From Clostridia bacterium (GTDB taxonomy: Bacteria > Bacillota > Clostridia > UBA1212 > UBA1255), in the NCBI GenBank assembly GCA_045546695.1, contig JAZQDE010000049.1, positions 7,288 through 71,287 on the forward strand: 64,000 bases of DNA. The letters run 5' to 3'. Shown here in pieces: positions 6,276 through 47,842 of this stretch. The notes under the pieces are model-generated. The model was not told the origin of the DNA. It saw only the letters and a program-made list of their open reading frames with translations, and did not search any database. Position numbers and translations under genes: made by a program. The first letter of the stretch is position 1, and each line of letters opens with the position of its first letter.

Positions 6276-7823
6276 TTATCCTGCAATATCAACCGAATCG
6301 ATGCCTGTGTACTTACCGATTGCCTTACTTTCTCCATTATGCCATACGTAAACAGTATTATTTGATGAATATATAATGTGCTCTATATTTGAATCAAAAA
6401 AGACTTCATTTGCTATATTCTGGCAGATTCTTGTAGTTCTGTTTTCAATTACAAGGTCTAAAGAAAGCTTGTTTTCTGCGTATTTGCGGCAAAGCAGATA
6501 TTCATCATCTGCAAGGCCATAGAGCCTTATTTCGTTTGACATATCAATTTTTTCTATATCACCTTTTTTAAACAATATATAGGCATCCTGTGAGCCATCG
6601 TTTTTCTGGTATCCCATAATCTTTTTATTGTAATAACTGTATAAAAATCCCGTATTATCGGATATCTTTGATATTTTCAGGGATACGTCAAGAACTTTGT
6701 ATCTGTTCAGCGTTGCATCTTCGTTGCGGAAATACAAAAGACCTAATGACTCCTGGTATAAAAACGTTGCGTTTTTATCACACGTTATTTGCTTTTGCGG
6801 CTTATTTCCACCGGCAGACATATAAATTGTGGAAGAATATTCTGACTTGACCGTGTACAGTATCATGTCATCATTCTGCGAGTAATATATAACGTTTGAA
6901 ATTTCCTGCGCAACCTGTTTTATTTTACCATCTTTAAAATACATTAACGATGCGGTTGTTCCTTGTTCATTTGTAACAATATCTGTCAGTAAATACTTGA
7001 ATGGAACAGATTGGTTACATGGTATCTTCTCCGCTATTGGTTCGGTAATATATGACGCTGATGAATTCTTTACGAGCTGAGCACCTTGTTTTTTTGTAAC
7101 TATTTTTCCTTTTATATTTGCAAATACAAGTTCGCCATCTTTTTTATAACAGATATACTCCCCGTCTGAGTCAATATAAAACGATTTACCCGGATCTATA
7201 TTTTCAGCAACTTTTGTAACTTTAGCGTTTTTATCAGCATAAAGAAGGTCCATCTTACCTGTATCTTCCTTTGAATTATCTGCAAAAAGAACTCCATTTT
7301 CACCGATGCAATACAGGTTGTCTATCAATATGTTAGATACAGTATTTTCACTTATTTTGATATATTTATTGCCCTTATATAAGTAAAGATATGCGTCGTT
7401 ATTCAGATCCACTGTGAAAATAACTGATTTGTCTTCAAACAGGTTGAAAAATGCACAGTTGTCTACAAGCATTCTTCTGCTGTTTGTTGTAATATCGTAT
7501 TCAAAGAGTTGGCTTTCTCTGAGGTAGTATACGAGTGCGTTTGACGTATCGTGTACAGCCTGACCTACTGAGTCATCGACCGGTGTAACTTCATATTCTT
7601 CGTTAATAATATACAAATCAGAATTGCTGTCTGTGAAAATAAACGGAAACATCTGTACCCGGCTGACGCCCATATCGTCGTCCTGAGTCATATCCGTTAC
7701 ATTGCCCGGCATTAGTTCGAGTAGCGATATAACAACAAATACAACAAATACAACACAGAATGCAATTATTGCATTGCGTTTTTTATCTCGTGTTATATAC
7801 GTTTTGATTTTTTTCTCAGCCAT
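6276..7823 (-). CDS. hypothetical membrane-anchored (type II) extracytoplasmic protein
   Basis: 515 aa. An N-terminal basic stretch is followed by one TM helix ([18 protein letters not shown]). The rest is Y/N/D-rich beta-type repeats. I recognise no family. It overlaps the metA stop by 8 nt. Confidence 0.65.
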
Positions 7824-8775: not shown

Positions 8776-8866
8776 ATGCACCATCCTTTCAAATAGTATT
8801 ATCTTTTTATTTTACTATAGAAAAGGCAAAAAGTCTATTCTTTATTAAATAAAAATGAATGAAAAA

Positions 8867-8893
8867 AAGCTCTGCCTATGGCAGAGCTTTTAA
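8867..8893 (-). terminator. rho-independent terminator ending the ABC operon (bidirectional-capable)
   Basis: AAAAAAAGCTCTGCC-TAT-GGCAGAGCTTTT forms a 10-bp GC-containing stem. An A-run flanks one side and a T-run the other. It lies 22 nt past the stop of the 8915-10261 gene. Confidence 0.65.
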
Positions 8894-8914
8894 TACTGTA
8901 ATTATCAATTAATC

Positions 8915-10261
8915 TCAATAATCAACCAATGTAGACCAGAGGTCATTACATGTTGTCTGGAGTTCTGTAAAGGCATTTTCAAGTGATACACTACCTGCCA
9001 TTACTTTTGGAATAATCTTAGCCATTTCTGTGTTGATCTTAGTAGCGATTTCGTAAGGCATACGACATACTACCTGACCTACGATACTTGCTGTCTGTGC
9101 TTCAAATACGAAAGCATCCCAGTTCTTATTTACCCAGTCTGCTTCGTCAGGATATCTCCAAGAAGAGTCTTCTTTGAGGCTACCTACTACAGGAACTGAT
9201 GCACCGGGCTGTCCGTTATAAGCTCTCTGACCTTCCTCTGTGTAGAAGAAAAGTGCGAAAGCAGCTGCTGTATCCTGATTTCTTGTTCTGTTATAAACGC
9301 CGAAACCTGAAGAACCGCAACCAAATCCTCTGTTCTGACCATTTTCACCAAAGCCGGGGAATGCAACGATATCCCAGTCAACGCCTGCAGCGTCATAGTC
9401 TTTACCAGCGCTGAGAACCTGAGGATGTACGCAATACTTGAATACAGGAGTACCTTGAGTCTTGGTGCTCGTACCTGGATTGATGTAACCTGCTAAAGCA
9501 GCATCAATACATTCCTGCATAGCCTGGAGTGTACGACCATCTTCATCAATAAATGTAATCTTCTTCTCTTCTGTGTCGCACCATGTGCCACCAACAGCTG
9601 ATTCAAAGAATGTTACATATACAGGTGAATATGTAAGGTCAATGTTTGCACCATAGAATTTCTCGTTTGTCTCTGATGTAGCTTCTGTAACAGTCTTGGA
9701 AATCTCAAGAAGGTCACTCCAAGCCCAGTCATTCTTAACCATTGTAGCAAGGTTGTACTCTTTCAATTTGTCTACGTTGTATGTAAAGCAAATTGCGTTG
9801 TAGTCTCTTGATACATAGTACAGACGACCATCAATCTTACCTAACTCATAAATACCCATGTAAACGTCTGACAAGTCAAGGTCAAGAGCTGCAACATAGC
9901 CCTCAAGTGGCATGAGACCATTACATGTAACAGCATACTCGTAAATCTGTGTCTCAGCGAAGTAGAAAACGTCACCGATTGTACCACCGTTTACACGTGT
10001 AGCTGATGAGTCAGATGAATCGAGCTTAACAGATGCATTTGGATATGCACTCTCAAATGCTTTGATAAAAGAAGTAGCTGCTCTCTTAGCAAAAGCATTT
10101 GACACATTGAATGTCCAAGTGATCTCACCGGATACGTTTACATCGTAATCAGCGTTAACGTTAGTAACGTTTACGATAGGTGCCTGATTACATGCAACCA
10201 TTCCGAATAAAGTGAGAGTTACAATGAACAAGACAATTGCTCTTTTTACAATCTTTTTCAT
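8915..10261 (-). CDS. ABC transporter substrate-binding lipoprotein (extracellular solute-binding family 1, CUT1 type)
   Basis: 448 aa. Signal peptide plus lipobox LFGMVAC. GTIGDVFYF and the overall pattern match sugar binding proteins. It is a paralog of the next gene. Confidence 0.85.
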   Translation of the reverse strand: MKKIVKRAIVLFIVTLTLFGMVACNQAPIVNVTNVNADYDVNVSGEITWTFNVSNAFAKRAATSFIKAFESAYPNASVKLDSSDSSATRVNGGTIGDVFYFAETQIYEYAVTCNGLMPLEGYVAALDLDLSDVYMGIYELGKIDGRLYYVSRDYNAICFTYNVDKLKEYNLATMVKNDWAWSDLLEISKTVTEATSETNEKFYGANIDLTYSPVYVTFFESAVGGTWCDTEEKKITFIDEDGRTLQAMQECIDAALAGYINPGTSTKTQGTPVFKYCVHPQVLSAGKDYDAAGVDWDIVAFPGFGENGQNRGFGCGSSGFGVYNRTRNQDTAAAFALFFYTEEGQRAYNGQPGASVPVVGSLKEDSSWRYPDEADWVNKNWDAFVFEAQTASIVGQVVCRMPYEIATKINTEMAKIIPKVMAGSVSLENAFTELQTTCNDLWSTLVDY

Positions 10262-10363
10262 TAAATAAACCTCCTAAGTAGTATTCTACATTTACTATAA
10301 TAATATCATAGTTTCAAAAAAAGTAAACAATAATATGATGAATATTTTATTACAATTCACCAA

Positions 10364-11842
10364 TTAATGTGTGTTTACAGCATCCTGTATCTCCTGCATG
10401 TAAATATCAAATGAAATATCATCTGATTCTGCATAAAGACGGATTGCCTCGCCTATTGCATCGTTAATCTCTGCAGATGGAGCAAGTGGCAGGAATGAAG
10501 TGATTTCTGCCGGATAATCAAATGCACTATACAGTGAAAATACAGATGTGTTTTTACCATCTACAGGGAAATTTCTCCAATATTTCTTTGCGTTTGCTGT
10601 GATAAGAGCAGGAACACGATATCCATCCTCGCCTGTTATGGCAACAGCGGCTTCTTCAACCATCGCATAAAGAGCGAATGTGATTGAATTCTTGATTGTG
10701 TTTTCAACGTTCTCTTTTTCTTCTGCCAAAAGAACCTCATCAGTTATTGCATCGTATACGCCATTAACAACGTTGTAGTGTTCACGGTTAAATGCGGCTA
10801 AACCAATTGTCTGAACACCGATTGTAGCAACACTCGTTTCAGTCTTTTCATCATAGAATCTCGGGAAATGAGCAAGCTCCCAGTCAAAACCGTCTGAATT
10901 GCTTCCGGCAAGACCATTTGCCCATCTTACGATATCTGAGTGATTACAGATAACCATAGCATAATTTGCAAGATCTGCTGCAGAAAGTTCTGCAGGTGTT
11001 TTATCCGCAACAAAACCTGTTTTAATGAAGTTATTTGCAAGATATTCAATACCGCTCAGAACAGCAGGATTTGTAAGTTTTAATGCAATATCATTTTCAG
11101 CAAAATCTACCTCATTGTAAAGCGCTGCACTCTTGCTTCTTGCAAATGCACCCCATACTGAATAATCAGCATAATCCATAACGATAGGAGACTTGTGACC
11201 TGCTTCTACCAGAGCTTTTGCAATCTCTTCTACCTCTTGCCATGTCCAGTCATCTTTTGGTACGACAGGGTTGATTCCGATTTCATTCAACAAATCGATA
11301 TTAAGAAGCATTACGGTGTTGTTGTATTCAACAGGACACATAAACAGTCTTCCGTCATACATTGAATTTGCAAGAGCAGCCGGATAGAAAAGCTTTGAAG
11401 GATAAAGCTTTGTATACTCATCACTTGTATAGTCGATAACGCCTTCACTGTGTTCGCTGAGGTCAATTATATAATCTTTTTCTGCATACTTTGCAAGCAT
11501 AGCTGAATCAATGGTGAAAACGTCACCAATTGTTCCGTTTTCGATTCTTTCTTCTAATGTTGAAAAATATTCTTCAGCGCTGTCTGCAAGATCAAGCTCT
11601 ATGTCTACGCTCGGGTACTGCATTACAAAAGATTGCATATAGTTGAAGCTTGCAATCTCACCGTCATCACAACGATACGAAGAGAATACAACAGAGCCGA
11701 TAAGTTCTTCAGGAATCGGTACAGGAGTTGATAAGCCGATGAATTCGTCCTCATCATCATCTTTTCCCGAACATGAGATGAGTGACAATACCATAATTGC
11801 GGCTAACAACATTGTAAGGATTTTAATTATATTTTTATTCAT
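10364..11842 (-). CDS. ABC transporter substrate-binding lipoprotein (family 1)
   Basis: 492 aa. Lipobox LSLISCSG. GTIGDVFTI is shared with its neighbour. Binding-protein fold pattern. Confidence 0.85.
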   Translation of the reverse strand: MNKNIIKILTMLLAAIMVLSLISCSGKDDDEDEFIGLSTPVPIPEELIGSVVFSSYRCDDGEIASFNYMQSFVMQYPSVDIELDLADSAEEYFSTLEERIENGTIGDVFTIDSAMLAKYAEKDYIIDLSEHSEGVIDYTSDEYTKLYPSKLFYPAALANSMYDGRLFMCPVEYNNTVMLLNIDLLNEIGINPVVPKDDWTWQEVEEIAKALVEAGHKSPIVMDYADYSVWGAFARSKSAALYNEVDFAENDIALKLTNPAVLSGIEYLANNFIKTGFVADKTPAELSAADLANYAMVICNHSDIVRWANGLAGSNSDGFDWELAHFPRFYDEKTETSVATIGVQTIGLAAFNREHYNVVNGVYDAITDEVLLAEEKENVENTIKNSITFALYAMVEEAAVAITGEDGYRVPALITANAKKYWRNFPVDGKNTSVFSLYSAFDYPAEITSFLPLAPSAEINDAIGEAIRLYAESDDISFDIYMQEIQDAVNTH

Positions 11843-11863
11843 TAATATAGCCCTCCTACAAAA

Positions 11864-12901
11864 TTACTCAATGACACCAATTCGTTCGATACCGGCAACA
11901 AGTCTCTTCTGACCAAGAATATATACTATTAATACAGGTAACATTACCATAAGACATCCTGCGAAAAGAACCGGTTCTGAAGAAGCTCTCAGAGTTTCAC
12001 TGATAGCACCGCCATCATAACCTAACTCCTCAAGATAATTCTGCTGAATCTTACTGAGGGATTCCTGGAATGTATTATGTTGTGGCAAGTAAGTATATGT
12101 CAATGTCTCCTGGTTATCATTCCAATGCCATACAAACGAGAATATAAATACGATTGTGAGCGCTGATTTAACAAGCGGGAACATAATCTGACCAAATACT
12201 CTGATTGGACCGGCGCCGTCGATTCTCGCTGCATCGTCCATAACGTCCGGAATTCTCTGGAAGAAGTACATATAAATCAAGATGAACAACGCGCCTCTCA
12301 GACCATGTCCGAAAAGTGACGGAATCAATATAGCGTAGAAACCTTCTGCCATTCCCATCTGTGACCACATGAAGAATGATGCTGTGATCATTGTTTGCGG
12401 CGGGATTAAGAGAATAATGATAACAAATAACATTATAAACAATCTGCCTCTGAACTTAAATCTACCTAATGAATATCCTACAAGAGCACATGAAACGGAC
12501 TGAAGAATCGCACTGCCAAGTGAAAGAATGATGGTATTCAGAAGAGTTGAGTAATAATCACCTATTCCGGGATCAACCAAATCAAGATCCAGTGACGGAT
12601 CTACTGAAAAGACATCCAGACCCATCCATGCTTTCTGGAAGTTTTCCCAGTTAATATGTGTAGGTATGTACTGTACAGTAGGATCCATGTAATCCTGAGC
12701 TGACATCATCGACGTCGTAAAGATGTAGATAAATGGTAACAGGAAAAGATAAGCAAGCTCTATGAGCACATAGTATAAGAAAACTCTTCCGATTACAAAC
12801 TTAATCTTTTTCTTTACTTTATAGCCAAGATTTTCGTATTTAGTGTAAAGGCCAAGGAAAAACTCCTTGATTCTATTTATCAATCGCTTCATCTCAGCCA
12901 C
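11864..12901 (-). CDS. carbohydrate ABC transporter permease (MalG-like)
   Basis: 345 aa with about six TM segments. The EAA-like loop is DAARIDGAGPIRVFGQIMFPL. It has an enlarged extracytoplasmic loop. Confidence 0.85.
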   Translation of the reverse strand: MAEMKRLINRIKEFFLGLYTKYENLGYKVKKKIKFVIGRVFLYYVLIELAYLFLLPFIYIFTTSMMSAQDYMDPTVQYIPTHINWENFQKAWMGLDVFSVDPSLDLDLVDPGIGDYYSTLLNTIILSLGSAILQSVSCALVGYSLGRFKFRGRLFIMLFVIIILLIPPQTMITASFFMWSQMGMAEGFYAILIPSLFGHGLRGALFILIYMYFFQRIPDVMDDAARIDGAGPIRVFGQIMFPLVKSALTIVFIFSFVWHWNDNQETLTYTYLPQHNTFQESLSKIQQNYLEELGYDGGAISETLRASSEPVLFAGCLMVMLPVLIVYILGQKRLVAGIERIGVIE

Positions 12902-13770
12902 CTCCTTGTGAAGAGAATGAATATGAGAATAACAATTAATGTCATCAACATGTAAAGCCAGCTAAGAGCAGCTCTCTCTCCGTATTTATCCATATTGTTG
13001 AGAAGTCCCATTACCGGGTTAGATGAATCAACGAATGAGTCAACAAGCGCGTAAATACAGTTCAGGATAACGAACGGAGATACGTATGGTAATGTGATAT
13101 GCCAGAATGATTCCCATGCAGACGCACCGTCCAGGTCAACAACTTCATAAAGGATATCCGGAACACTCTGAAGAGCAGCAAGGAAGATAAGAATCTCTAC
13201 ACTACTTCTCCACATTATGTGACCAATTTCTGAGGCAATTCCTCCGAATCCTCTCAGGAACTGATTGTTTGCAACAATCTGACCGAAGATACTAATATTA
13301 CCAACGTCATCACTGAAAAGATATGACATGATAACACCGGAAAGGATAACCGGGATAAAGAATATAACTCTGAAGTAAACTCTTCCGGGGAATTTCTGCT
13401 TTAACAGTACTGCAACAAACAATGCAAATGCAACGATTACAGGTACCTGATAAAGAGCATTCAAAAATGAATTTAACACAACCTGACCCGATTCAGGATC
13501 CTGAATAACCTCAATATAGTTATCAATACCTACCCATGTACTAAGGCCTGTATTACACCACAAGTCCTGTCCGTTAACGTTGTAAAAACTCATTTTTACA
13601 GACATGAAGAGTGGAATAAACAAGAACCAAACGAGGCCTATTAACCATGGAATTGAGAAAACCAAGCCTTCAAGATTACGTCTTCTTTCGAAAGATAAAA
13701 ACGTAGTCTTAACTCTTCTATGAGCCAGCTGTTTCTTTGTTAAAACTTTTGTTTTTTTATTATCTGCCAT
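12889..13770 (-). CDS. carbohydrate ABC transporter permease (MalF-like)
   Basis: 293 aa. Polytopic, with the EAA motif region LDGASAWESFWHITLPY. Confidence 0.85.
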   Translation of the reverse strand: MADNKKTKVLTKKQLAHRRVKTTFLSFERRRNLEGLVFSIPWLIGLVWFLFIPLFMSVKMSFYNVNGQDLWCNTGLSTWVGIDNYIEVIQDPESGQVVLNSFLNALYQVPVIVAFALFVAVLLKQKFPGRVYFRVIFFIPVILSGVIMSYLFSDDVGNISIFGQIVANNQFLRGFGGIASEIGHIMWRSSVEILIFLAALQSVPDILYEVVDLDGASAWESFWHITLPYVSPFVILNCIYALVDSFVDSSNPVMGLLNNMDKYGERAALSWLYMLMTLIVILIFILFTRRWLR

Positions 13771-13773
13771 AGA

Positions 13774-16332
13774 TTACTCCCCCTTAGCGCTTATTACGCT
13801 ATATCCTTGACCATCAAATGATAATACGTCATTTGTGTAAGGATCCGTTATCTCAATTGCTTCTTTTTCGTAGCAAACGTATACTCTTGCTCCGCCTGAA
13901 TATTCGGTGCAGTATACTTCAGCATCAGCTGAAAGCTTGTAATGGTTTACAATCTCTTCGTTAACGAAAGGAGCAACAGCTTCTTCAATTGCTTTATAAA
14001 CCATTTCAATTGTACCAAGCTGATCAAGCAGTTCATACTCTGATTTATATAATGTATTGTAATATGTCCACTTAAGCAACGCAGATTCTTCTTTTGTTAC
14101 TTCAATTGAACCTAATGCACCATATTCAATGGATCTGAGCAATGCATCATATTCTACGTCACAGTTATTAATTGGCATTGAATAGTAAGGTACTATGCCA
14201 TGGTAAATCATCTGTACAAACGGAATCTCCTCATCAAGTACAACGTGTGAAGACTTTGTCATAGACATATCGTAAATTGATGATACGAAAGGAACAACAT
14301 ATGAATTACCATTGTATACTGATACAGTATCAAATTTTTCATTGTATTTGATAAGCCAGTCAACATATTTATTGATTAACTGAATTCTGAATAATGCATT
14401 GAACTGGTTATAGTCTGAATAAAGCTGATCACCAATCTGCTGAAGAGTAACGCCTGATACATCATAGTCGCGGAGTCTACCGATATTCTTTGAAAGAATC
14501 TTACTCTCAAAGTATAAAGGACTGAGAATATATCCGTTTCCACCTCTATAATAAGCACCGGAAACTGTCTTGAGCTTATAGTTCAGATAGAACGTACTTG
14601 GAATCTTCACGACAGAATTTCTGAGTGTAGCACTGCCTGACGGTGAACCATACAGGTACAATAAGTTGTTATCATAGTTGACTGTTATACCATTCTCCTC
14701 TGCCCATGCGTTGAATTCTTCCATGTCAAGGCCATCATCATAGCTGCTGTCGGGCTTAAGTTTAGATGTGGAATTCCAGAAATAACCATTATTCATCCAA
14801 CCAACCATTGTCATGGTAATATCTGACATTCCCTTGTTCTTGAGATCATTATAAATATTCTGAGCATCCTTGAATGTTGTCATTACCTTAAGCTGGTTTG
14901 TTACGCCACCTACAGCATTTTCTGCACCCATGAATGTTCTGAGATTCAGAATATCAGCATCAGAAATGTTTCCGATTGTAACGTCAACTCCGTATCTTTC
15001 TTTCCACTGAGCAATCATTTTTGTCTGAACAGTCTTTGCAAGGTCGTTGTAACTATATTCTTTTTCTTCAGATAAATCAAATCTGATACGCTGCTCTACG
15101 TCACCGAGCTGCATAGTTCTTGTAATATCTGAATATGAAGAACCTGACTTTGAAACCTGTCTGTTGAAATACTCTCTATATGTGTACTGAACGTATATCG
15201 CATAGAACGGAACGTTTCTTACACCCGGATTTGATACTCTCAGGTATGCATTTGCTTCACCCTGTTCAATAAATCCGGTAATCATTGAGTTTGCATATTT
15301 ATTAACGTCTTTTGCATCCTCACTCAGATTTTCAATAATACCATATGCCCCAAGAAGGATTGTATGGTTGTTATATCTTGGCTGAGATTCAGCATCCGTT
15401 ACAGAGTCAATTGTATAATCCCAACCGTAAATTCTTTTTGCGTATTCACTTGAGTTACTTACTCTTGATACTGAGAAGTCAGTAACTGCACCTGAACCAT
15501 CCGGAACAACAAAGTAACCGGATTCACCGCTACGATGAGCAAAAAGATATGGAAGAACAGCAAGAGATGAAAGAAGTGGTCTTTCTTCTGCTGTCTGATC
15601 TTCAATATCATCGCTCAGATATGGGCGCTCGATGATACCATTTTTAGGAATGAAATATACAACTTCATTACCATCAAGTGTAATTTCCACAGAAAACTCG
15701 AGTTCGAGGTCTACCATTTCATAAGTCAACCTGATACCATTTTCGATATAGTATACATTTTTAACATGTTCCTGAGTATTTACACCGACAAACAGACCAC
15801 TGTCTCGGCCGGACATCTTTGTGTATCCAATGAATACAGGTGAAGTAATAATATTACCGGTAGAAGTACCCTTCTTGAAAATATCTATATCACCCGGATC
15901 ATCTTCTGTCGCCTGAATCGGCTCAGGATAACTTCTGAAGATCTCACCTGTTGCATTATCCTTGAAAATAAACAAGTCATTCTTTGGGGAATAGCTCATT
16001 GTGAGATATTCATTCTGTGCAATAACTGTCATTCCCTCGTCTCCGAGCATCTGACCGTTAATGCCTTTATCTTTCAGTGGTGCTGATACCTGTACGTCGC
16101 TCTTTATACCTTCGTCGCTGAATGAGATTAAAGATGATTCAGCAAAACCCACCTTGATAATAAGGAAGCCGAGTAAAAATACTGTAACAAGAGCTACAAC
16201 AATCTTAACAATTCTGAGGTAGAATTTCTTTTTTGCCATCTTGGCAGCATATGCTGCAGCTTCTGCCTCATCAATATATAAAGAAGTTTTTTTGGTTTCA
16301 ACATCAATATCTTTTTTCTTTTTCTTAAACAA
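13774..16332 (-). CDS. large N-terminally membrane-anchored extracytoplasmic protein of unknown function. It may be a TIM-barrel glycosidase-like family of the DUF5696 type.
   Basis: 852 aa. A Lys-rich N-terminus (MFKKKKKDIDVETKK) is followed by a single TM (IVKIVVALVTVFLLGFLIIKV). The extracellular body has motifs VPDGSGAV, MTMVGWMNNGYFWN and PFVQMIYHGIVPY. It is translationally coupled to the genes on both sides. Confidence 0.7.
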   Translation of the reverse strand: MFKKKKKDIDVETKKTSLYIDEAEAAAYAAKMAKKKFYLRIVKIVVALVTVFLLGFLIIKVGFAESSLISFSDEGIKSDVQVSAPLKDKGINGQMLGDEGMTVIAQNEYLTMSYSPKNDLFIFKDNATGEIFRSYPEPIQATEDDPGDIDIFKKGTSTGNIITSPVFIGYTKMSGRDSGLFVGVNTQEHVKNVYYIENGIRLTYEMVDLELEFSVEITLDGNEVVYFIPKNGIIERPYLSDDIEDQTAEERPLLSSLAVLPYLFAHRSGESGYFVVPDGSGAVTDFSVSRVSNSSEYAKRIYGWDYTIDSVTDAESQPRYNNHTILLGAYGIIENLSEDAKDVNKYANSMITGFIEQGEANAYLRVSNPGVRNVPFYAIYVQYTYREYFNRQVSKSGSSYSDITRTMQLGDVEQRIRFDLSEEKEYSYNDLAKTVQTKMIAQWKERYGVDVTIGNISDADILNLRTFMGAENAVGGVTNQLKVMTTFKDAQNIYNDLKNKGMSDITMTMVGWMNNGYFWNSTSKLKPDSSYDDGLDMEEFNAWAEENGITVNYDNNLLYLYGSPSGSATLRNSVVKIPSTFYLNYKLKTVSGAYYRGGNGYILSPLYFESKILSKNIGRLRDYDVSGVTLQQIGDQLYSDYNQFNALFRIQLINKYVDWLIKYNEKFDTVSVYNGNSYVVPFVSSIYDMSMTKSSHVVLDEEIPFVQMIYHGIVPYYSMPINNCDVEYDALLRSIEYGALGSIEVTKEESALLKWTYYNTLYKSEYELLDQLGTIEMVYKAIEEAVAPFVNEEIVNHYKLSADAEVYCTEYSGGARVYVCYEKEAIEITDPYTNDVLSFDGQGYSVISAKGE

Positions 16333-18436
16333 GATAACTCAACTCCTTTACCAATTGTGCGATAAATGTGAACAGCTGACTTGTCAATGCATATACGAGA
16401 ATGAATAACATTGCAACTGCTGAAACACCGACAACTGTTATGAAAAATACAACAAATGCTTTAACCGGGTGGAAGCCGTGTATACCCTTGATGGCAAAGT
16501 ATACAAGGAACACTACCAATATCATAAGGATTGTATTCGCAAGATTCCACAGACTTTGTTCATTAAGAGTAAGAACATGTGTCAAAGCATGAAGTGGAAG
16601 TAATGCTATCATCCACGGAACGTGACAATATGCACCTGCGATAAATACGTCTCTGAGACGACCTTCACCATACATGATTGTTGTAACGCCGTAGTTAACA
16701 ACACACATAACAAGCCATGGAATCAATGAGAACAATATTGTCTCAAATGGATTAATCAGGTCGAGAGAAGAGCCTCCTCTGAATATAAAGCTTGTAGCAT
16801 ATTCAGAAGCAACTGAAACGGCAGTGTAAAGTAACATTACAAGCACCATATCTGTATAAGAACCCTGGTTCTCATATCTGATACCTTCAAATCCATCAAC
16901 AGGATGACGTACCACGCCATAGCTTCTGCTGAAGAACTTCTTGACCTTAGTAAACGCATTGTTTTTCTCCGGAGGAACACCATACTTACGTTTTCTGTAA
17001 CGTTTGAATGTCTTCCACGCAATAGCAAGTAACAACAATGCGATGATTGAGATAACAATAACAGTAAAGTAATCTCTTATAAAATATGTTCTGATCTCGT
17101 CAAACGCATCAGAAGCATTTGTGGCATCTTCTGCATCTACAAAATAATCGTATGCTATCTTGTAGTTCTCTTCCTGCATCTTACGCATTTCTATTTTACC
17201 CATGTTAAGAAGAGCAAGTGTATAGAAGCTGTCTTTTTCAAGAATTTCTTTCCAGATCGGAAGAGATTCATCATATTTACCATCAATAAAGAGATTGTTG
17301 GCTTCATGAACCGTCTTGATAAAATCTGTCGGCTCGTAAACTGTAATTGTTGAAGTTGCGTTATCAAGAACGTATACCCTACCTCTGCTGTCAACTTCTA
17401 TACTGATTGGAACTCTGATCTGACCGTATCCAAGACCATCACTGCCGAATACACAAAGGTTGTTGCCCCATTCGTCATATGAATAAATACGGCAATATCT
17501 CTGATCGAGAATGAACATGTTACCATTGCTGTCAACTGTTACATCGATAAATGTCTGGTTAACATCTGAATAGTTGTTTGACAAGCTCGTATCACTGAAG
17601 TTGAATGATCCGTACAATACGTCAGAACCTGCAATGTTAATCTTTCTTACCTGAGGTGGTGTATCTGTTGTTGTAGTCGCATACATATAACCATCGTCAG
17701 ATGCGTAAATGTTTGTGAAAGTATACGGGAGCGTAACGATAGAACCTTTTCTGTCCTCTCTGTCCCAGAGTACTTTTGCAATTGATTCCCAGAAGGAAAG
17801 GTTTACTTTGTTTGTGCCATAGTAACTTCTGAATTCACCATCTGCACTAAGCTGCATGATACCGTTATAGTCACCTGTGTTACATACGTAAATATAACCT
17901 CTGGTATCCTTTGTAACTTTTAAGGGCTGATAGTTAAAATCAACTGATAAAAGTTCACTTTGCGGCATTTCATATGAATATCTCAAGTTACCATATTTTG
18001 TATATTCAACAAGTCTTGAATTACCTGAGTCTGCTACAAGGATTGTACCTGAACCTGAATCAACGTAAACACACATAGGATTCTTGAGTGCTGACTGATC
18101 TTCAGGATATGTACCCTTACCTGATACTTCCAATACAAAATTATAATCAGAATCGTATTTTACTATTCTGTTGTTACCGGTATCTACAACATAAATATTA
18201 TCATCATCATCAATGAAAATATCTTCCGGTTTGCTGAGTTTACCCTCTTCTTTAGTAGGTTTATCAATAACTGTGCAAACTTCGTATGCTGCCGGAATCG
18301 GATAAGGCTTATCCAGAGCACCGTTGTACATATTCAGATAATAGTTCGGATATGGAGTATCGGCACTTACAGTAAACGTACATGTGAATACGAGAGCAAA
18401 TAACAGGAGTAAACAAACATATTTTTTCATTTTCAT
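16325..18436 (-). CDS. secreted NHL-repeat beta-propeller fused to a C-terminal Yip1-like multi-pass membrane domain
   Basis: 703 aa. Signal peptide MKMKKYVCLLLLFALVFTCTFTVSA. There are five or six NHL blades (YVVDTGNNRIVKYD, ILVADSGNSRLVEY, IYVCNTGDYNGIMQL, MFILDQRYCRIYSYD, VYVLDNATSTITVYE). After a TM helix and a basic cytoplasmic linker come about five further TM helices resembling Yip1-domain proteins. Confidence 0.8.
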   Translation of the reverse strand: MKMKKYVCLLLLFALVFTCTFTVSADTPYPNYYLNMYNGALDKPYPIPAAYEVCTVIDKPTKEEGKLSKPEDIFIDDDDNIYVVDTGNNRIVKYDSDYNFVLEVSGKGTYPEDQSALKNPMCVYVDSGSGTILVADSGNSRLVEYTKYGNLRYSYEMPQSELLSVDFNYQPLKVTKDTRGYIYVCNTGDYNGIMQLSADGEFRSYYGTNKVNLSFWESIAKVLWDREDRKGSIVTLPYTFTNIYASDDGYMYATTTTDTPPQVRKINIAGSDVLYGSFNFSDTSLSNNYSDVNQTFIDVTVDSNGNMFILDQRYCRIYSYDEWGNNLCVFGSDGLGYGQIRVPISIEVDSRGRVYVLDNATSTITVYEPTDFIKTVHEANNLFIDGKYDESLPIWKEILEKDSFYTLALLNMGKIEMRKMQEENYKIAYDYFVDAEDATNASDAFDEIRTYFIRDYFTVIVISIIALLLLAIAWKTFKRYRKRKYGVPPEKNNAFTKVKKFFSRSYGVVRHPVDGFEGIRYENQGSYTDMVLVMLLYTAVSVASEYATSFIFRGGSSLDLINPFETILFSLIPWLVMCVVNYGVTTIMYGEGRLRDVFIAGAYCHVPWMIALLPLHALTHVLTLNEQSLWNLANTILMILVVFLVYFAIKGIHGFHPVKAFVVFFITVVGVSAVAMLFILVYALTSQLFTFIAQLVKELSYLV

Positions 18437-18450
18437 AATCTGTAACCTCC

Positions 18451-19329
18451 TTATTTAATACCTGAATGTGCCATTGTATCCATAACACGGCTTTGCTGAA
18501 TTATGAATATTATGATACTTGGCAACGTCATAATTAACGATGAAACTGCTGTCGCACCTGTTCTTGCAACGTTACCGCCAATTGTTGACATAAAGAACGC
18601 AAGTGTTCTTAAGTTCTCTTCATAAATGTATGTGTTTGATGTACCTGCATCGCCCCAGATACCACCGAATGAAAGGATGATAGCTGTTGCCTGAGCATTC
18701 TTCAGAAGCGGCAATGCAATCTTTGTATACAGCTTCCATTCACTTGCACCGTCAATCTTACCAGCCTCAAAAATCGAATCAGGAACCTGATCCAGGAACT
18801 GTTTCATAAGGAAGAGGATTGTCGTTGAAGCCAGACCCGGGATAATATAAACAAAATATGTATTATCAATACCGAGCTTTGTAATAATCAGGTATGAAGG
18901 AATACCTGCAGCTGCTGTTACGAACATCAGGGCTGTTGTAATGAGCTTGAACAAAGCTTTATGTCCTGGGAACTTATGCTTTGAAAGCGGATAACAAGCC
19001 ATTGTGTCTACCATAATCAATGCAAACAAGTAACAGATAGTTACAAATATTGTATTGAAAAGATATCTTGAAAATGGTACCAAGCTGTTTGATGTTACTG
19101 TACTGAGGTCAGAGAAGTTCTGTAGCGTCGGATTCTTAACGAAGAACGTCGGCGGATACAGGAACAATTCCTCCGGTGGCTTGAAGGCCGTGCTTACGAG
19201 GTAAATCAAAGGAAGGAATGATAGGATACCTGCCAGGGACAGGAATATAACAATTATCTTACCAGAGTAATCTCTATGTTTTCTCGCTTTTTTTAAATAA
19301 TCAACGTCAACTTGTAACATATGCATCAC
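18451..19329 (-). CDS. carbohydrate ABC transporter permease (MalG-like)
   Basis: 292 aa, polytopic. EAA loop EAGKIDGASEWKLYTKIALPLL. Confidence 0.85.
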   Translation of the reverse strand: MMHMLQVDVDYLKKARKHRDYSGKIIVIFLSLAGILSFLPLIYLVSTAFKPPEELFLYPPTFFVKNPTLQNFSDLSTVTSNSLVPFSRYLFNTIFVTICYLFALIMVDTMACYPLSKHKFPGHKALFKLITTALMFVTAAAGIPSYLIITKLGIDNTYFVYIIPGLASTTILFLMKQFLDQVPDSIFEAGKIDGASEWKLYTKIALPLLKNAQATAIILSFGGIWGDAGTSNTYIYEENLRTLAFFMSTIGGNVARTGATAVSSLIMTLPSIIIFIIQQSRVMDTMAHSGIK

Positions 19330-20312
19330 TCCTTATCTTGTAAGAGTTTGAACGCAATACGTCCAAGACCCAATATTAATATTGACAACACAACGGCTAT
19401 CGCCGACGCGTAACCAACCTCAAATCGTGTACCGGAGTAGTCTCCTAAGTGCAACATAATCGTAAGACCTGCATCCTCCGGAGACGGGTGACCTGCCATC
19501 GTAGAACCTACAGTAAACGCACCTGTAATCTGTAATACGGCTGCGAAGAGCAACTGTGGCATTGTCTGCGGAATATCAACATACAGAAGTCTCTGGAATC
19601 TTGATGTAACACCGTCAACGGCAGCTGCGTCATATAGCTCGCGGTCAACGCCTCTGAAACCGGCAACAAATGACAAGAATCCTGTACCAAGTGATGACCA
19701 CAAAGCAACTACGATTGTAACCGGCATGATAAGGTTAACGTCCTGAGTCCACATGATAGGCTCATTTATGAAGCCCATCTTCAAGAGTAACGCATTCAGG
19801 TAACCTGTACTATCGTTAGAGAAGAGTACTCCCCATACAACCGTCATCGCTACAGCACTTGTAAGTGACGGAGCATAGAATGCCAGAACGTAGACTGCTC
19901 TGATTTTGTCAGGAACCTGGTTGATAAGCCATGCAAAGAAATATGATGCAACATATCCACAAGGACCAACAATAACAGCATAATAGAGAGTGTTACTGAA
20001 AGCCTTTAAGAAGAGCGGGTCATCAACGAAAAGGTACTGATAGTTTGTAAGACCATTGAATACCGGATCTTCAAGAATACTCCAATAAGTAAAGCTCAAT
20101 GCTGTTGATGCAATCAACGGAAGCAGTGAAAAAATTATAAATACTATAAAGAATGGTGCGATGAGACCATATGACATTTTATAACGCCACATCTCATGCA
20201 GTGTGTAGCCAAAACGTTTCTCAACGTTGAAGAAACGTTTTTTAGGCTTTTGAACTGCAGGCACAGCCGATTCTTTTTTGTTTGAATCTTTATTTTTTGA
20301 CACTCTACTCAC
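19326..20312 (-). CDS. carbohydrate ABC transporter permease (MalF-like) with basic N-terminal extension
   Basis: 328 aa. A Lys-rich cytoplasmic N-terminus is followed by six TM segments. EAA loop DAAAVDGVTSRFQRLLYVDIP. Confidence 0.85.
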   Translation of the reverse strand: MSRVSKNKDSNKKESAVPAVQKPKKRFFNVEKRFGYTLHEMWRYKMSYGLIAPFFIVFIIFSLLPLIASTALSFTYWSILEDPVFNGLTNYQYLFVDDPLFLKAFSNTLYYAVIVGPCGYVASYFFAWLINQVPDKIRAVYVLAFYAPSLTSAVAMTVVWGVLFSNDSTGYLNALLLKMGFINEPIMWTQDVNLIMPVTIVVALWSSLGTGFLSFVAGFRGVDRELYDAAAVDGVTSRFQRLLYVDIPQTMPQLLFAAVLQITGAFTVGSTMAGHPSPEDAGLTIMLHLGDYSGTRFEVGYASAIAVVLSILILGLGRIAFKLLQDKE

Positions 20313-20315
20313 CTC

Positions 20316-23300
20316 TTAATCTTCCTTAAGACTATGGAGACATGAACCAATACTCGGATCAGGACCATCGGCCAGGATATCCCAATATTGTTCTTGTTTA
20401 CGTCTCATCTCTTTATCTATCTCACGGATAGCATCTTCGAGAGCAACTCTTGCACTCTGTCCCTGCAATACTGTCTGGTTAAGAGCTGTAAGCAAGTACC
20501 TTGATGTGTAGTAGTCACCAAGAGTCTGAGGAGTCTCTTTGATCCAATCCCACTGAGCATTGATAACTTCGAGTTCTTCTGCTGTATAAGGTAATTCCTG
20601 TACAGCATTCTTGTTCGCAGAATTCCATCTGCCGGCAACACCGAATGTAGCTTCGATTTCTCTGCCATATTCTGCCTGGACGTCGTCAGAAGCCCACCAC
20701 TGCATGAATACCCATGAAGCTTCTTTTGTCTTTTCAAAATCAGGTCTTTCGTGATTGTTGATCATAATCGAACATGTAGCAACAGCGTTCATTGATCTGT
20801 CAATTACTACCTCACCTGCTTCGTTGAGTTTAGCCTGTCCGGGAACCGGCTTCATAGCCCATTTACCTTCAAGCTCAGGAGCTGCGTAATTGAGCTGACA
20901 ATAGAAGCCCATATCACCGATACCAATCGGCATCTCACCTGATTTAAATCTCATATAGAAGTTTGCAGCGTAAACGAAATTGTACTGTAAATAGAGGTTA
21001 CAATATTCAATAAATCCATCATAAGCTGCCTGCGTACCAAGAGCAGATGTCATACCATGTTCATCATAGAATGTACCACCGTGCTGGTAGAGGAATGGTG
21101 TGTAGCCACCTACACCATAGTTATAACAGAAATCGTAACCTGAGTTTGTAAGAATCGGAATAATATCATATACGTCTTCCCATGTATCAGGAGCAACGAT
21201 TCCTAATTCTTCAAATATATCAGTTCTGTAGAAAAGTGCTGACCAACCCTGTGTCTCCGGGAAACCATAACAGTGATCCTTGAAGTTGATAGGTTTGAAT
21301 ACTTCTTCATAATATGAAGATGCCTTAAGGTCATCAAATCCGAGGTATGCCTCGCCGTTGAACTCGCCTGATTCAAATGTATCAAGCGGAACAAGCGCAT
21401 CTCTTACAGCGTATTCAAACGGAGTACCTACACCGATTGATATAGCAACATCAGGAGCAGTACCTGCAACATAACGTGGCATGATAAGACCTTCAGAAGC
21501 ACCTGCAACCATGTTGAGGTTTACCTTGATACCATATCTTGAAGTAAAGTCTTCACCAATCATGTTCTCGAGAATTGTAACATACTCTCTGGCACGTGAT
21601 ACATATACGGTAATCTCTGTGTCAGCATCTGATGCGCCTTCTCTCAGACCATAGTTAGAATATTTTTCTGTATCGAATGAATCAAAGAATCTTACAACAC
21701 CAACTTTAAGATTCTGCCAACCTGAGCTGACTGTACCCGGATAATCATATCCATCTGTACAAAGAACCATGTAGTCAGCAGTCATAGGCTGATCTTTGAT
21801 TGATGAAAGTGTCGTACTGAGACCTGAAAGAGCATTGTTGATATCGTTAAGAGATGTAGGAATCTTTTCCAGATCTTCTTCGAACTTTTCAAAGAGCTCC
21901 TCTGCAACCTGAATTGCTGATGCGTAAGACGGTACCTTATTACCATTCAGAGCAAGAATCTCTTTATATGTCTCAGCAAAAAGCTCCTTGTATGTAACAA
22001 CGTCATCCTGGATAGAAGGAATGTACTTCTGCAAATCCCAGTCACGGTTTGCATCAACAATATAGCCACCCGAGCTTGAACGTGTAGAAGCAGTAATCTT
22101 TACGATCTTGTTGATAAGAGTTGAAATTGAATCCATTGACTCTTCAAGTGCTACAAGAGCATGTCTGAGTGGACCAACCTTATTTGTAATAGTAATCGTA
22201 TGTGTGCCTGCTTCAAGATAGAACATGTAAGGATTCTGGTTTGCATCACAAAGAGAAGTAGCAATCCAGCCATCTGAGTATGGGAAGCAATATTCCTTCA
22301 TCTCTTCAAAAGGAATCTCGCCGTCAATCTTAATTTCTCTGTAGCATGCAACATATGTGAGTTGTGACTTGTATCTGAAACCGATCTCGTACCAGCCTGT
22401 CTCAGGAACCTCAAATGACCATTGAGCCATGTCGCCACCTGTATTCCAGTTGTCACCGCCGAAGATATTGTAAAGTGTCACTTTATAAGGAGATGCATTA
22501 ACGTCAGAAGATGTGCAATAGTTGCCATCTGTTTCCATACGTGTACTGATACTTGTGACAAAGTCAGCAACCTCAAGTTCAGTCTTGATGATGCCACCCT
22601 TATAGATAGCGCCTTCGCTGAAGCCGTTTGCTGTCTTGTAATCTTCGTATGAACCAATAACAGGAGGTGCTACAAAGCTGATACCATTGATAACACCGGG
22701 TTCTCTGTCAAATGTCATGGTGACAATATGTGTACCCTCTGTCATATAGAATCTGTAAGGATCCTTATAAAGGCCATCAGGGTTTGTCATAATCTGACTG
22801 TTCTGCTTATAAAGAATCATTGTCTTACCACGGATCTGGTTGCCTACGATATCTTTGTTGTTAGCGTAGTCAGTATCATAGAATGTATATGTACGCTTGA
22901 GTGACAGGTTACTTGCTTCAGCAAAAGGATATTTCTCATCAATTGTCAATGAAACAAGCATGTCAGCATACTTTCCACTCAAAAGATAATAATCGAGGTT
23001 CAATGAATACAATGCCGATTCAGGAATTGTAACCTCGAATGTAATAGTAGTCTTGCCTGTAGAAGCGTACAAGCCATCTTCGATGTCCGTAACGGTAACT
23101 TCTTCGTCCTTGGATGGATCTGTATATTTAAAGCCATCTTTGAACTTATCTACTTGTGAAAACAGCTTTAATGCTTCGGACGCATCATCACCCTCGACAA
23201 CAACAGCGCTGTCGGGATTGCCTGTCTCATAAATAGTAAGATTACCATTAGCGTCAGTTGAGAAATCAAGACTGATATCCTCACCTTCGTAATACTTGTA

Positions 23301-23534
23301 ACCCTTCGTTGCATATTTGCTGAGTACCTTACCGTACTCCAGCAAACTGTTATCAAGTCTGTCTTCGTTAGTTATAAACGGATTGAAATCCATCTCATCA
23401 TAATTCTCATAAGCAAATTGCTGCGCACCGGGTTCTTTGGTGAGAGAATTTACTACGAGGACTGCGATGAGAATAACAAGAAGACCGGCTACGACCGATA
23501 ACTGAATAATTCTCTTCTTCTTCTTTTTATTCAT
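20316..23534 (-). CDS. giant membrane-anchored solute-binding protein: an N-terminal TM anchor, a ~550-aa extension of unknown function and a C-terminal family-1 binding-protein domain
   Basis: The preferred start is MNKKKKKRIIQLSVVAGLLVILIAVLVVNSL at 23534, with GGAAGG 9 nt upstream. The 23591 start adds 19 implausible residues. The C-terminal ~480 aa have the binding-protein pattern (periplasmic-binding fold type II sugar binding proteins). It is the first gene of the operon. Confidence 0.75.
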   Translation of the reverse strand: MNKKKKKRIIQLSVVAGLLVILIAVLVVNSLTKEPGAQQFAYENYDEMDFNPFITNEDRLDNSLLEYGKVLSKYATKGYKYYEGEDISLDFSTDANGNLTIYETGNPDSAVVVEGDDASEALKLFSQVDKFKDGFKYTDPSKDEEVTVTDIEDGLYASTGKTTITFEVTIPESALYSLNLDYYLLSGKYADMLVSLTIDEKYPFAEASNLSLKRTYTFYDTDYANNKDIVGNQIRGKTMILYKQNSQIMTNPDGLYKDPYRFYMTEGTHIVTMTFDREPGVINGISFVAPPVIGSYEDYKTANGFSEGAIYKGGIIKTELEVADFVTSISTRMETDGNYCTSSDVNASPYKVTLYNIFGGDNWNTGGDMAQWSFEVPETGWYEIGFRYKSQLTYVACYREIKIDGEIPFEEMKEYCFPYSDGWIATSLCDANQNPYMFYLEAGTHTITITNKVGPLRHALVALEESMDSISTLINKIVKITASTRSSSGGYIVDANRDWDLQKYIPSIQDDVVTYKELFAETYKEILALNGNKVPSYASAIQVAEELFEKFEEDLEKIPTSLNDINNALSGLSTTLSSIKDQPMTADYMVLCTDGYDYPGTVSSGWQNLKVGVVRFFDSFDTEKYSNYGLREGASDADTEITVYVSRAREYVTILENMIGEDFTSRYGIKVNLNMVAGASEGLIMPRYVAGTAPDVAISIGVGTPFEYAVRDALVPLDTFESGEFNGEAYLGFDDLKASSYYEEVFKPINFKDHCYGFPETQGWSALFYRTDIFEELGIVAPDTWEDVYDIIPILTNSGYDFCYNYGVGGYTPFLYQHGGTFYDEHGMTSALGTQAAYDGFIEYCNLYLQYNFVYAANFYMRFKSGEMPIGIGDMGFYCQLNYAAPELEGKWAMKPVPGQAKLNEAGEVVIDRSMNAVATCSIMINNHERPDFEKTKEASWVFMQWWASDDVQAEYGREIEATFGVAGRWNSANKNAVQELPYTAEELEVINAQWDWIKETPQTLGDYYTSRYLLTALNQTVLQGQSARVALEDAIREIDKEMRRKQEQYWDILADGPDPSIGSCLHSLKED

Positions 23535-23690
23535 ACGCTCAACCTTCCATATTGTAGATTGTGAAACGATTATTAACTCAAAACATAACACAAAATACGC
23601 CCAAGTCAGATTTGGGCAAACTTAACAAAATGATTATATAGATTTTATGCAACAGTGTCAACTGTAACCTTTTTATTTTTTAAGATATTT

Positions 23691-33990: not shown

Positions 33991-34010
33991 TTATTTTATG
34001 AGGAGAATGA

Positions 34011-35137
34011 TGAAAATGGCAAGAAAGTTTTTCACATCAGAATCAGTTACAGAAGGACATCCCGATAAGATCTGCGATACTATCGCTGACCGTATTCTGG
34101 ATGCTATTATAAGCGATGACCCTACTGCAAGAGTTGCCTGTGAGGTTACTGCTGCGACAGGACAAATCCTTATTATGGGAGAGATCACTACCACAACATA
34201 TGTGGATTTCCAGAAAATAGTAAGAGATACTGTTGTTGAGATTGGATACGATTCATCAGATCTCGGTTTTGACGGACATACGTGCGCAGTTCTTAATTGC
34301 GTACACGAACAGTCTCCCGATATTGCCCTTGGTGTTGATATTGAAGGCGCCGGCGACCAGGGTATGATGTTTGGTTATGCGTGTGACGAGACACCTGAGC
34401 TTATGCCACTTCCTGTCAGCCTTGCCCACAAATTATCATACAAGCTGACACAGGTCAGGCGCGACGGCATTCTCCCCTACCTGCGTCCGGATGGAAAGTC
34501 ACAGGTTACGATTGAATATGATGAAAACAACAAGCCAATCCGCGTAGAGGCAGTCGTTGTTTCAAGCCAGCATGCGGCTGACGTTGATATTGAAGTTCTT
34601 CGCAGGGACATCAAGGAGCACGTTATCAAGGCTGTTATTCCGGCTGAATTGATTGATGAAAATACTAAATTCTTTATAAATCCGACAGGCAGATTCGTGC
34701 TCGGCGGACCTTGCGCAGATTCAGGTCTTACAGGTCGTAAGATCATTGTTGATACGTACGGCGGCATGGGTCGTCACGGTGGCGGAGCTTTCAGTGGCAA
34801 AGATCCGACGAAGGTTGACCGTAGCAGTGCATATATGGCACGTCACATTGCAAAGAGTATCGTAGCTTCAAAGCTTGCCTCCAGATGTGAGATTCAGCTC
34901 AGCTACGCAATCGGCGTTGCAGAGCCTGTCAGTGTCCGTGTTGAAACTTTCGGCACAAATACTATTCCCGAGAGCGAGATTGAAGCGCGCGTTCTTGAGC
35001 GTTTTGATATGCGCCCGGCCTCAATTATCAAATATCTGAATTTGCGTACTCCTTTATATGCAAAGACAACAAACTACGGTCACTTCGGCAAAGAAAATCT
35101 TGGTCTTAAGTGGGAGGAGGTTGTTGATTTAAAATGA
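34011..35137 (+). CDS. metK: S-adenosylmethionine synthetase
   Basis: [22 protein letters not shown] and [16 protein letters not shown] are hallmark MetK motifs. The start is chosen 6 to 8 nt after AGGAGA at 34001. ATGs at 33998, 34008 and 34017 are alternatives. Confidence 0.9.
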
Positions 35138-43791: not shown

Positions 43792-43805
43792 AATATACCT
43801 CCTTG

Positions 43806-47629: not shown

Positions 47630-47711
47630 ATGGGAGATTGTGGATTCGAACCACAGAAGTCGTCGACAACAGATTTACAGTCTGCCCCCTTTGGCCGCTC
47701 GGGAAATCTCC
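47630..47711 (-). tRNA. tRNA-Tyr (anticodon GTA), type II with long variable arm
   Basis: Reverse complement: GGGAGAT TT CCCG AGCGGCCAAA GGGGG C AGACTGTAAATCT GTTGTCGACGACTTC TGTGG TTCGAATC CACA ATCTCCC A. It has a 7-bp acceptor stem, an anticodon loop with GTA and the GTTCGAATC T-loop. 82 nt. No 3' CCA is encoded. Confidence 0.9.
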
Positions 47712-47741
47712 CAGCTTCCGAAATATTCAATTTTCGGAACA

Positions 47742-47814
<73 letters not shown>

Positions 47815-47842
47815 CTTGTGCTTGTTTTCAAGCAACGTGTGA

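Follow-up and report, generated by a model that had tools for sequence, protein, structure and literature searches.

A probable CUT1-type glycan-uptake locus between murD and metA in a Clostridia bacterium, one copy of a widespread gene cassette

Nine co-directional open reading frames (ORFs) on the minus strand of contig JAZQDE010000049.1 of a Clostridia bacterium (assembly GCA_045546695.1), here numbered g1 to g9, probably constitute a polycistronic glycan-uptake locus of the CUT1 type that is one copy of a widespread and conserved cassette shared by hundreds of species of Gram-positive bacteria. The DNA analysed, hereafter the window, comprises 64,000 nt (contig positions 7,288-71,287), and all coordinates refer to it. 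The operon encodes three solute-binding proteins (g1, g8 and g9) and four MalF/MalG-type permeases (g2, g3, g6 and g7), together with a fusion of NHL and Yip1 domains (g4) and a membrane-anchored DUF5696 protein (g5), and it lies between murD and metA as a stripped version of the cassette, with no hydrolase, ATPase or regulator gene of its own. The original prediction, made from the letters of this stretch, had described a nine-gene, co-directional ATP-binding cassette (ABC) uptake operon with three binding proteins and two permease pairs, and both the ORFs and the Pfam and NCBIfam assignments agree with that description. It had also regarded two permease pairs in one unit as unusual, a view that does not hold: the two-pair layout is no oddity, being the hallmark of a common cassette of which an annotated example has been published in Caldicellulosiruptor bescii (PMC8579813).

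Gene content and organization of the operon

Domains were called with Pfam and NCBIfam, and structures were assessed through AlphaFold2 models and Foldseek. The nine genes are as follows.

20316..23534, minus strand: g1, giant solute-binding protein of 1072 aa (Pfam SBP_bac_1, AlphaFold2 model)
19326..20312, minus strand: g2, MalF/UgpA-type permease with EAA loop (Pfam BPD_transp_1, NCBIfam)
18451..19329, minus strand: g3, MalG/UgpE-type permease with EAA loop (Pfam BPD_transp_1, NCBIfam)
16325..18436, minus strand: g4, protein of 703 aa with signal peptide, six-blade NHL beta-propeller, short helical linker and C-terminal Yip1 domain (Pfam)
13774..16332, minus strand: g5, DUF5696 single-pass (N-in) membrane protein of 852 aa (Pfam, 390 bits)
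12889..13770, minus strand: g6, MalF/UgpA-type permease with EAA loop (NCBIfam UgpA/MalF-like)
11864..12901, minus strand: g7, MalG/UgpE-type permease with EAA loop (Pfam BPD_transp_1, NCBIfam)
10364..11842, minus strand: g8, lipoprotein solute-binding protein with lipobox LISC (Pfam SBP_bac_1)
8915..10261, minus strand: g9, lipoprotein solute-binding protein with lipobox MVAC (Pfam SBP_bac_1)

These ORFs occupy positions 8915..23591, or 8915-23534 with a revised start of g1, which most likely is the ATG at 23534 behind the sequence GGAAGG, giving a protein of 1072 rather than 1091 residues, because this ATG and its ribosome-binding site (RBS) are conserved in orthologues. The intergenic spacings from g1 to g9 are, in order, +3, -4, +14, -8, +3, -13, +21 and +102 nt; the earlier statement that no gap exceeds 20 nt apart from one of 102 bp is correct for the g8-g9 gap and off by one for the largest of the others (21 nt). 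Assignment to the CUT1 importers (TC 3.A.1.1), also proposed at the outset, is borne out by UgpA/UgpE/MalF/MalG and SBP_bac_1 matches, since both MalF/MalG subunits with an EAA loop and MalE-fold binding proteins are present. An EAA-type coupling loop can be read in the translations of all four permeases, including that of g6, which scores below the cut-off of Pfam BPD_transp_1 (21.1 vs. 26.4 bits).

Within the window, the paralogous permease and solute-binding protein pairs share only ~22% identity, and each has its orthologues in the other loci, which makes the doubling an ancient one; a recent duplication of the permease pair was rejected on the same low identity and on the orthology of each pair across phyla. 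No substrate is named here, because the operon carries no glycoside hydrolase (GH) gene and the solved relatives of the lipoprotein binding proteins g8 and g9 are distant only (Lmo0181, YesO and TMBP).

Conservation of the cassette across genomes

The layout of related loci was established through our own ORF calls and classification with hidden Markov models, and 75 loci with enough flanking sequence were assessable. The seven-gene order of giant solute-binding protein, permease, permease, NHL/Yip1, DUF5696, permease, permease is found in 64 of these 75 loci, and this core order is retained even at ~23% identity. The NHL/Yip1 genes, the DUF5696 gene and the second permease pair always stand together, and orthologous loci devoid of the two non-transporter genes, which would have spoken against the original prediction, were not encountered: both genes are present in 75 of the 75 loci. 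NHL and Yip1 form a single fused protein in 45 loci, whereas 41 loci encode them as neighbouring genes; the most frequent spacing between NHL/Yip1 and DUF5696 is an overlap of 4-8 nt.

Closer to the window, all nine genes recur between murD and metA in relatives with a 45-85% identical DUF5696 protein. The closest genomes are those of uncultured Clostridia and Oscillospiraceae from animal guts. A horizontal-island origin was considered and rejected on account of the flat GC content over the region and of the murD/metA synteny, which holds down to 45% identity. On a broader scale, a pattern derived from 11 sequences was scanned against one genome per species and yielded at least 600 stretches, of which at least 549 (549 of the 600 listed) encode a DUF5696 relative; the taxa represented among the best 80 stretches include Paenibacillus, Cohnella, Bacillus, Lachnospiraceae, Oscillospiraceae, Dictyoglomaceae and Spirochaetes. 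The DUF5696 family as a whole amounts to ~5,300 clusters at 50% identity (E<=1e-10).

The distant copies of the cassette are accompanied by genes that the window copy does not have. Among 103 genes lying just 5' of distant copies, 12 encode ABC_tran proteins, of which 10 have the MalK oligonucleotide/oligosaccharide-binding (OB) fold domain and are hence MalK-type ATPases, and a further 11 encode AraC-type helix-turn-helix proteins, 5-8 LacI-type regulators and 3-4 a histidine kinase or response regulator. The commonest families among 100 co-directional downstream genes are GH32 (11), GH43 (9), GH26 (7), GH38 (5) and GH30 (4), and GH2 and GH53 also occur. The variety of GH families beside the cassette therefore indicates that its core is used with many different glycans. 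The linked carbohydrate-active enzymes (CAZymes) and local regulator seen in many relatives are absent from the window copy, which is flanked by murD, ask, hom, thrC and metA.

Variants of the arrangement were also noted. In ten loci from Paenibacillus, Cohnella and spirochaetes (L021, L027, L028, L031, L037, L042, L049, L050, L055 and L065), a MalK-sized ATPase gene lies immediately 5' of the giant binding protein gene, and no small solute-binding protein was detected nearby in six of them (L021, L027, L028, L031, L042 and L049). The cassette of L021 is followed by genes for an OmpR-type response regulator and a histidine kinase, and ORFs of matching size stand at that place in L027 and L028. 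In L034 and L087 the triplet of giant binding protein and two permeases comes after the second permease pair, not before NHL-Yip1, and no giant binding protein was recognised upstream in L030, L038, L039, L048 and L051. In L024, a metagenome-assembled genome of Ruminococcus sp., the cassette is flanked by genes for a YfhO-family membrane protein and a membrane glycerophosphodiester phosphodiesterase, which is a cell-envelope context and not a glycan-catabolic one.

The DUF5696 protein

Two large non-transporter membrane proteins between the permease pairs had been noticed earlier; they are indeed present, and can now be identified as the NHL-Yip1 fusion g4 and a GH129-like ecto-protein, g5. 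According to its model, g5 is anchored in the membrane, faces outward and adopts a GH129-like fold: a single N-terminal transmembrane helix precedes an ectodomain made of a beta-sandwich, a (beta/alpha)8 barrel and a second beta-sandwich (AlphaFold2; predicted local distance difference test, pLDDT, 78; predicted TM-score, pTM, 0.82). Its best Foldseek matches are 5opq and 8rzk (ZgGH129) and 5wzn (NagBb), with E-values of 1e-28 to 1e-18; the TM-score to the top GH129 structures is ~0.69, normalised to the target, and GH101, GH36, GH97 and GH31 structures follow. A profile built from 28 homologues of g5 likewise matches GH129 chains in the PDB (ZgGH129 at E 1e-8, NagBb at E 4e-5), through collinear short stretches, each weak alone, that are located at both ends of the protein and in the early barrel. 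The three-domain fold is thus common to g5, to the 3,6-anhydro-D-galactosidase ZgGH129 and to the alpha-N-acetylgalactosaminidase NagBb, whereas g5 is only 10-13% identical to these enzymes, possesses an N-terminal membrane anchor and is filed by Pfam under DUF5696 instead of GH129. No paper mentioning DUF5696 was found in the searched literature.

Residue conservation was counted over 88 homologues at ~23% identity. D278 is kept in 88/88, N722 and E736 in 87/88 each and R649 in 83/88, and the candidate nucleophile D640 is kept in 76/88 (86%) and replaced in the other 12. When residues 596-760 were compared as a sub-profile with the PDB, no GH129 chain was matched, and the catalytic residues could not be mapped. 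A doubtful but tenable alternative to an enzymatic g5 is that DUF5696 is a non-catalytic, lectin-like pseudo-glycosidase that serves glycan binding only, with hydrolysis left to unlinked enzymes. The replacement of D640 in a minority of homologues and the failure to align the GH129 catalytic segment are consistent with such a role, as is the occurrence of the cassette beside very different hydrolases (for fructan, mannan, arabinan/xylan, galactan and alpha-mannoside), which would be odd for a substrate-specific enzyme. Against it, near-invariant polar residues (D278, E736, N722 and R649) at so low an identity suggest a preserved pocket, D640 is retained in most of the family, and divergence of specificity within the family could explain the varied contexts.

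Some DUF5696 proteins are far longer than the usual ~850 aa, such as P0151 (1859 aa) and P0039 (1186 aa), and presumably carry extra domains.

The NHL-Yip1 protein and the giant binding protein

The NHL propeller of g4 (Pfam, 56.6 bits) is extracellular and matches solved six-blade NHL propellers of the PDB over several stretches, among them the extracellular sensor domain of PknD. The Yip1 domain (PF04893, 39.0 bits vs. a cut-off of 28.6, residues 507-676) is a multi-pass membrane domain, and the hydrophobic segments of g4 fall between residues 456 and 680. The gene overlaps that of g5 by 8 nt. The only tested precedent for a bacterial Yip1 protein is YknW, a member of the family encoded in the YknWXYZ system of Bacillus subtilis and reported to influence how the YknXYZ ABC transporter is assembled (PMC4887032). 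Like g4, YknW is a bacterial membrane protein with a Yip1 domain whose gene accompanies those of an ABC transporter; unlike g4, it serves a MacB-type exporter and lacks an NHL propeller, whereas g4 has the propeller and sits with importers. Searches of the literature for Yip1 together with solute-binding proteins gave nothing relevant.

In g1, the SBP_bac_1 match is limited to the C-terminal third. The AlphaFold2 model (pLDDT 86) consists of an N-terminal transmembrane anchor, two beta-sandwiches resembling carbohydrate-binding modules (CBMs), a helical bundle or stalk and a MalE-like domain, and its Foldseek matches are MalE-type solute-binding proteins. Among 35 homologues of g1 scanned for domains, 15-18 show weak CBM_35 or Golvesin_C matches in the N-terminal part.

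Comparison with known uptake systems

The closest published counterpart is the proximal part of the xylan degradation locus of C. bescii, which comprises xloEFG, Athe_0177 (an NHL repeat protein), Athe_0178 (GH129) and axoFGE, is induced together on xylan and has been assigned to the XynR and AraR regulons (PMC8579813). By annotation its order is that of the window: solute-binding protein, two permeases, NHL-repeat protein, GH129-like protein, two permeases and solute-binding protein. Both are CUT1 systems without an ATPase of their own, as are all CUT1 systems of C. bescii, where a strain deleted for the shared msmK gene (Athe_1803) is severely impaired in growth on cellobiose, cellulose, xylan and pectin, although not on monosaccharides (PMC8579813). 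The C. bescii locus, however, runs on into seven CAZyme genes and has XynR and AraR operators, whereas the window operon has no hydrolase, known operator or local regulator, and also differs in its two terminal solute-binding proteins and its position between murD and metA. A second profile search for named homologues (e.g., in Caldicellulosiruptor) returned only the earlier matches, and the locus tags Athe_0177/0178 and Csac_2415/2416 are not mentioned in the main texts of the searched literature.

With well-known CUT1 importers (MalEFGK2, MsmEFGK and UgpBAEC) the window operon shares MalF/MalG permeases with EAA loops and MalE-fold binding proteins, and a shareable MalK/MsmK ATPase, the other trait of these systems, is predicted for it. 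It departs from them in having two permease pairs per unit, two extra membrane proteins between the pairs and a binding protein that is a 1072-aa, membrane-anchored chain with CBM-like modules and a helical stalk. A Gram-positive polysaccharide utilisation locus brings together enzyme, transporter and regulator. Distant copies of the cassette conform to this definition through their GH genes and their LacI, AraC or two-component regulators, whereas the window copy has neither a regulator nor a canonical hydrolase.

Promoter, leader and operon boundaries

The signals that accompany the nine genes are the following.

23633..23661, minus strand: main promoter P1, TTGACA, 17 nt, TATAAT, with 12/12 sigma-70 matches (signal scan)
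23612-23630 (region 23598..23630), minus strand: conserved leader box TTTTGTTAAGTTTGCCCAA (orthologue comparison)
10300..10327, minus strand: internal promoter-like element in the 102-bp g8-g9 gap, TTTACT, 16 nt, TG-n-TATTAT (signal scan)
8865..8891, minus strand: intrinsic terminator with a 12-bp stem and T-run, the only strong terminator (sequence signal scan)

The single terminator proposed for the 3' end is confirmed as the only strong one (8891..8865), the additional terminator-like matches within coding sequences being weak. Transcription as one unit, also part of the original prediction, agrees with the way in which P1 and this terminator bracket the genes, and has to be qualified by the element before g9. 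In four orthologous loci (L001, L011, L002 and L004), a TTGACA or TTTACT box with a TG-extended -10 stands at the matching position; the element is kept in orthologues and g9 may therefore have its own promoter. In the published expression table of C. bescii, the terminal solute-binding protein gene Athe_0181 has counts far above those of the upstream genes in several columns (PMC8579813).

Orthologous loci retain the sequence from the -35 of P1 to about +25 even where their proteins share only 45-55% identity, and the surrounding intergenic DNA has diverged. Within this segment, the box TTTTGTTWAGWKTGCCCAA directly follows the -10 element of P1 and overlaps a 6-bp hairpin with a T-rich tail (23598-23618). 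The box has a single occurrence in the window. A scan of metagenome contigs gave 70 matches to the box, of which five lie behind a nearby TATAAT and the remaining 65 have no such promoter. Since all five promoter-linked matches precede a g1-type RBS, and are thus orthologous promoters of the same operon, no regulon can be inferred. A riboswitch or attenuator is not supported, as no Rfam family matches the leader, its folding is no better than that of shuffled sequences (z -0.59) and the hairpin sequence is not kept in L002; a RAT antiterminator site, based on loose resemblance only, was dropped as unsupported. The box is at best guess a candidate operator, i.e., a repressor site, or a 5'-end element.

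The statements that follow on ATPases, regulators and neighbouring genes cover the 64-kb window or the neighbours scanned within it. No protein with Walker-A/LSGGQ motifs is encoded among the nine operon genes, and the sole ABC ATPase motifs in 64 kb belong to two fused, exporter-sized ORFs at 59271-62992. All scanned neighbours belong to non-regulatory families. The absence of an ATPase and of a local regulator, as originally described, is hence upheld; the conserved box after the -10 is the only lead to the regulation of the operon, the regulator not being encoded nearby.

Proposed mechanism and alternative readings

In the reading preferred here, the giant binding protein g1 would capture glycan at the cell surface and feed the first permease pair (g2/g3), and the lipoprotein binding proteins g8 and g9 would feed the second (g6/g7). 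The GH129-like ecto-protein g5 would trim or hold the glycan beside the transporters, and g4 would act as a membrane scaffold or assembly factor, by the precedent of YknW. Both translocators would draw their energy from a MalK/MsmK-type ATPase whose gene lies elsewhere in the genome, and the conserved box that follows the -10 may be the target of a regulator likewise encoded away from the operon. The proposal that a shared MsmK-type ATPase serves the operon in trans fits both the MalK-type genes, with their OB-fold domain, found upstream of ten distant copies and the phenotype of the C. bescii msmK deletion (PMC8579813). Import of oligosaccharides as the function of the locus is suggested by the GH genes that accompany its relatives and by the C. 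bescii literature.

Several observations weigh against this reading. No MalK/MsmK-type ATPase gene was located within the window, and no hydrolase or regulator is linked to the operon there, so that the presumed catabolic role is drawn from relatives at ~23% identity. The link to Athe_0174-0181 is an inference from published annotation and gene order. The catalytic competence of g5 is unproven, given that D640 is kept in only 76/88 homologues and that the mapping of GH129 residues failed. Finally, about one quarter to one third of the loci have no small solute-binding protein beside the second permease pair, a count that includes loci on truncated contigs and loci whose small binding protein the size filter overlooked; complete loci of this kind include L009, L043 and the ATPase-containing Paenibacillus group. 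A model of two independent importers, each with its own binding protein, hence does not fit everywhere.

These last loci bear on an alternative, judged unlikely, in which the seven core proteins form one membrane machine that captures, processes and imports glycans as a Gram-positive counterpart of the Bacteroidetes Sus-like utilisome. Yip1 would here join both MalFG-type translocators, capture of the polymer would fall to the NHL propeller and to the giant binding protein with its CBMs, and the DUF5696 ecto-enzyme would pass its product directly to the second permease pair, with no dedicated binding protein. The giant protein as sole binding protein for two permease pairs in several complete loci speaks for such a machine, which is further favoured by the order fixed across phyla, with NHL/Yip1, DUF5696 and the second pair together in all 75 loci, by the 8-nt overlap of g4 and g5 and the similar overlaps elsewhere, by the fusion or adjacency of NHL and Yip1 (45 and 41 loci) and by the example of YknW, a Yip1 protein that reportedly acts in the assembly of an ABC transporter. 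The conserved order could, however, reflect mere co-regulation; the window encodes two ordinary lipoprotein binding proteins able to serve the second pair, the triplet is displaced in L034 and L087, and a giant binding protein is unrecognised in about five loci.

That the cassette here recycles or remodels a cell-envelope or host-independent glycopolymer, and not a dietary polysaccharide, with more or less constitutive expression, appears improbable. The perfect-consensus promoter, the lack of a local regulator and of a hydrolase, the stable synteny with murD and the envelope-related flanks of the Ruminococcus locus L024 would all accord with such a role, but murD and metA are housekeeping genes with their own signals, most of the distant copies lie in clearly catabolic glycan loci and the conserved box after the -10 suggests regulated expression. 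Least credible of all, and close to refuted by synteny, is the mere adjacency of two unrelated ABC importers and two unrelated membrane proteins without functional link, for which the low (~22%) identity of the paralogous pairs and the conserved promoter-like element before g9 could be invoked, but which is at odds with the same order in 64/75 loci over distant taxa, with the tight or overlapping spacings and with the co-induction of the C. bescii genes on xylan (PMC8579813).

As a glycan-uptake cassette of the CUT1 type, the system is found in loci for fructan, mannan, xylan/arabinan, galactan and alpha-mannoside in Firmicutes of gut and soil. Its interest resides chiefly in the core proteins NHL-Yip1 and DUF5696, and less in the window locus itself: their roles, once known, would explain by what means many Gram-positive degraders of glycans link processing at the surface to ABC import, and would improve the annotation of very many genes now labelled hypothetical. 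The window copy has no hydrolase and no regulator and thus lends itself, as a clean and minimal form, to the question of what the core does on its own.

Neighbouring genes and other features of the window

The neighbours named in the original prediction are supported by family matches, murD upstream (TIGR01087, 302.7 bits vs. a cut-off of 211.95) and metA, of the acetyltransferase type, downstream. Beyond murD lie genes for aspartate kinase (ask), homoserine dehydrogenase (hom) and threonine synthase (thrC), and these four genes separate the operon from one for a GH78-like six-hairpin protein (Bac_rhamnosid6H; 29327..31486, minus strand), five genes upstream. On the other side, a 515-aa ORF without a family match (6276..7823, minus strand) overlaps the end of metA, and unannotated genes of similar size (512-517 aa) come after metA in L001, L002 and L004.

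Further upstream, a 378-aa ORF (35134..36270, plus strand) directly after metK (33998..35137) combines a LuxS domain (residues 6-148) with a Pfs-like nucleosidase domain, PNP_UDP_1 (residues 166-356), in a fusion that unites two consecutive steps of the activated methyl cycle in one protein. A 999-aa ORF (37841..40840, minus strand) and a divergent 396-aa ORF (40927..42117, plus strand) have no Pfam match, and the former has no NCBIfam match either. A tandem pair of tRNA genes is located at 47631..47815 (minus strand). A co-directional trio (42463..46339, minus strand), with genes for a CBM9-like protein of 442 aa, an unknown protein of 404 aa and a GH127-like protein of 440 aa, may represent a separate small glycan-degrading unit.

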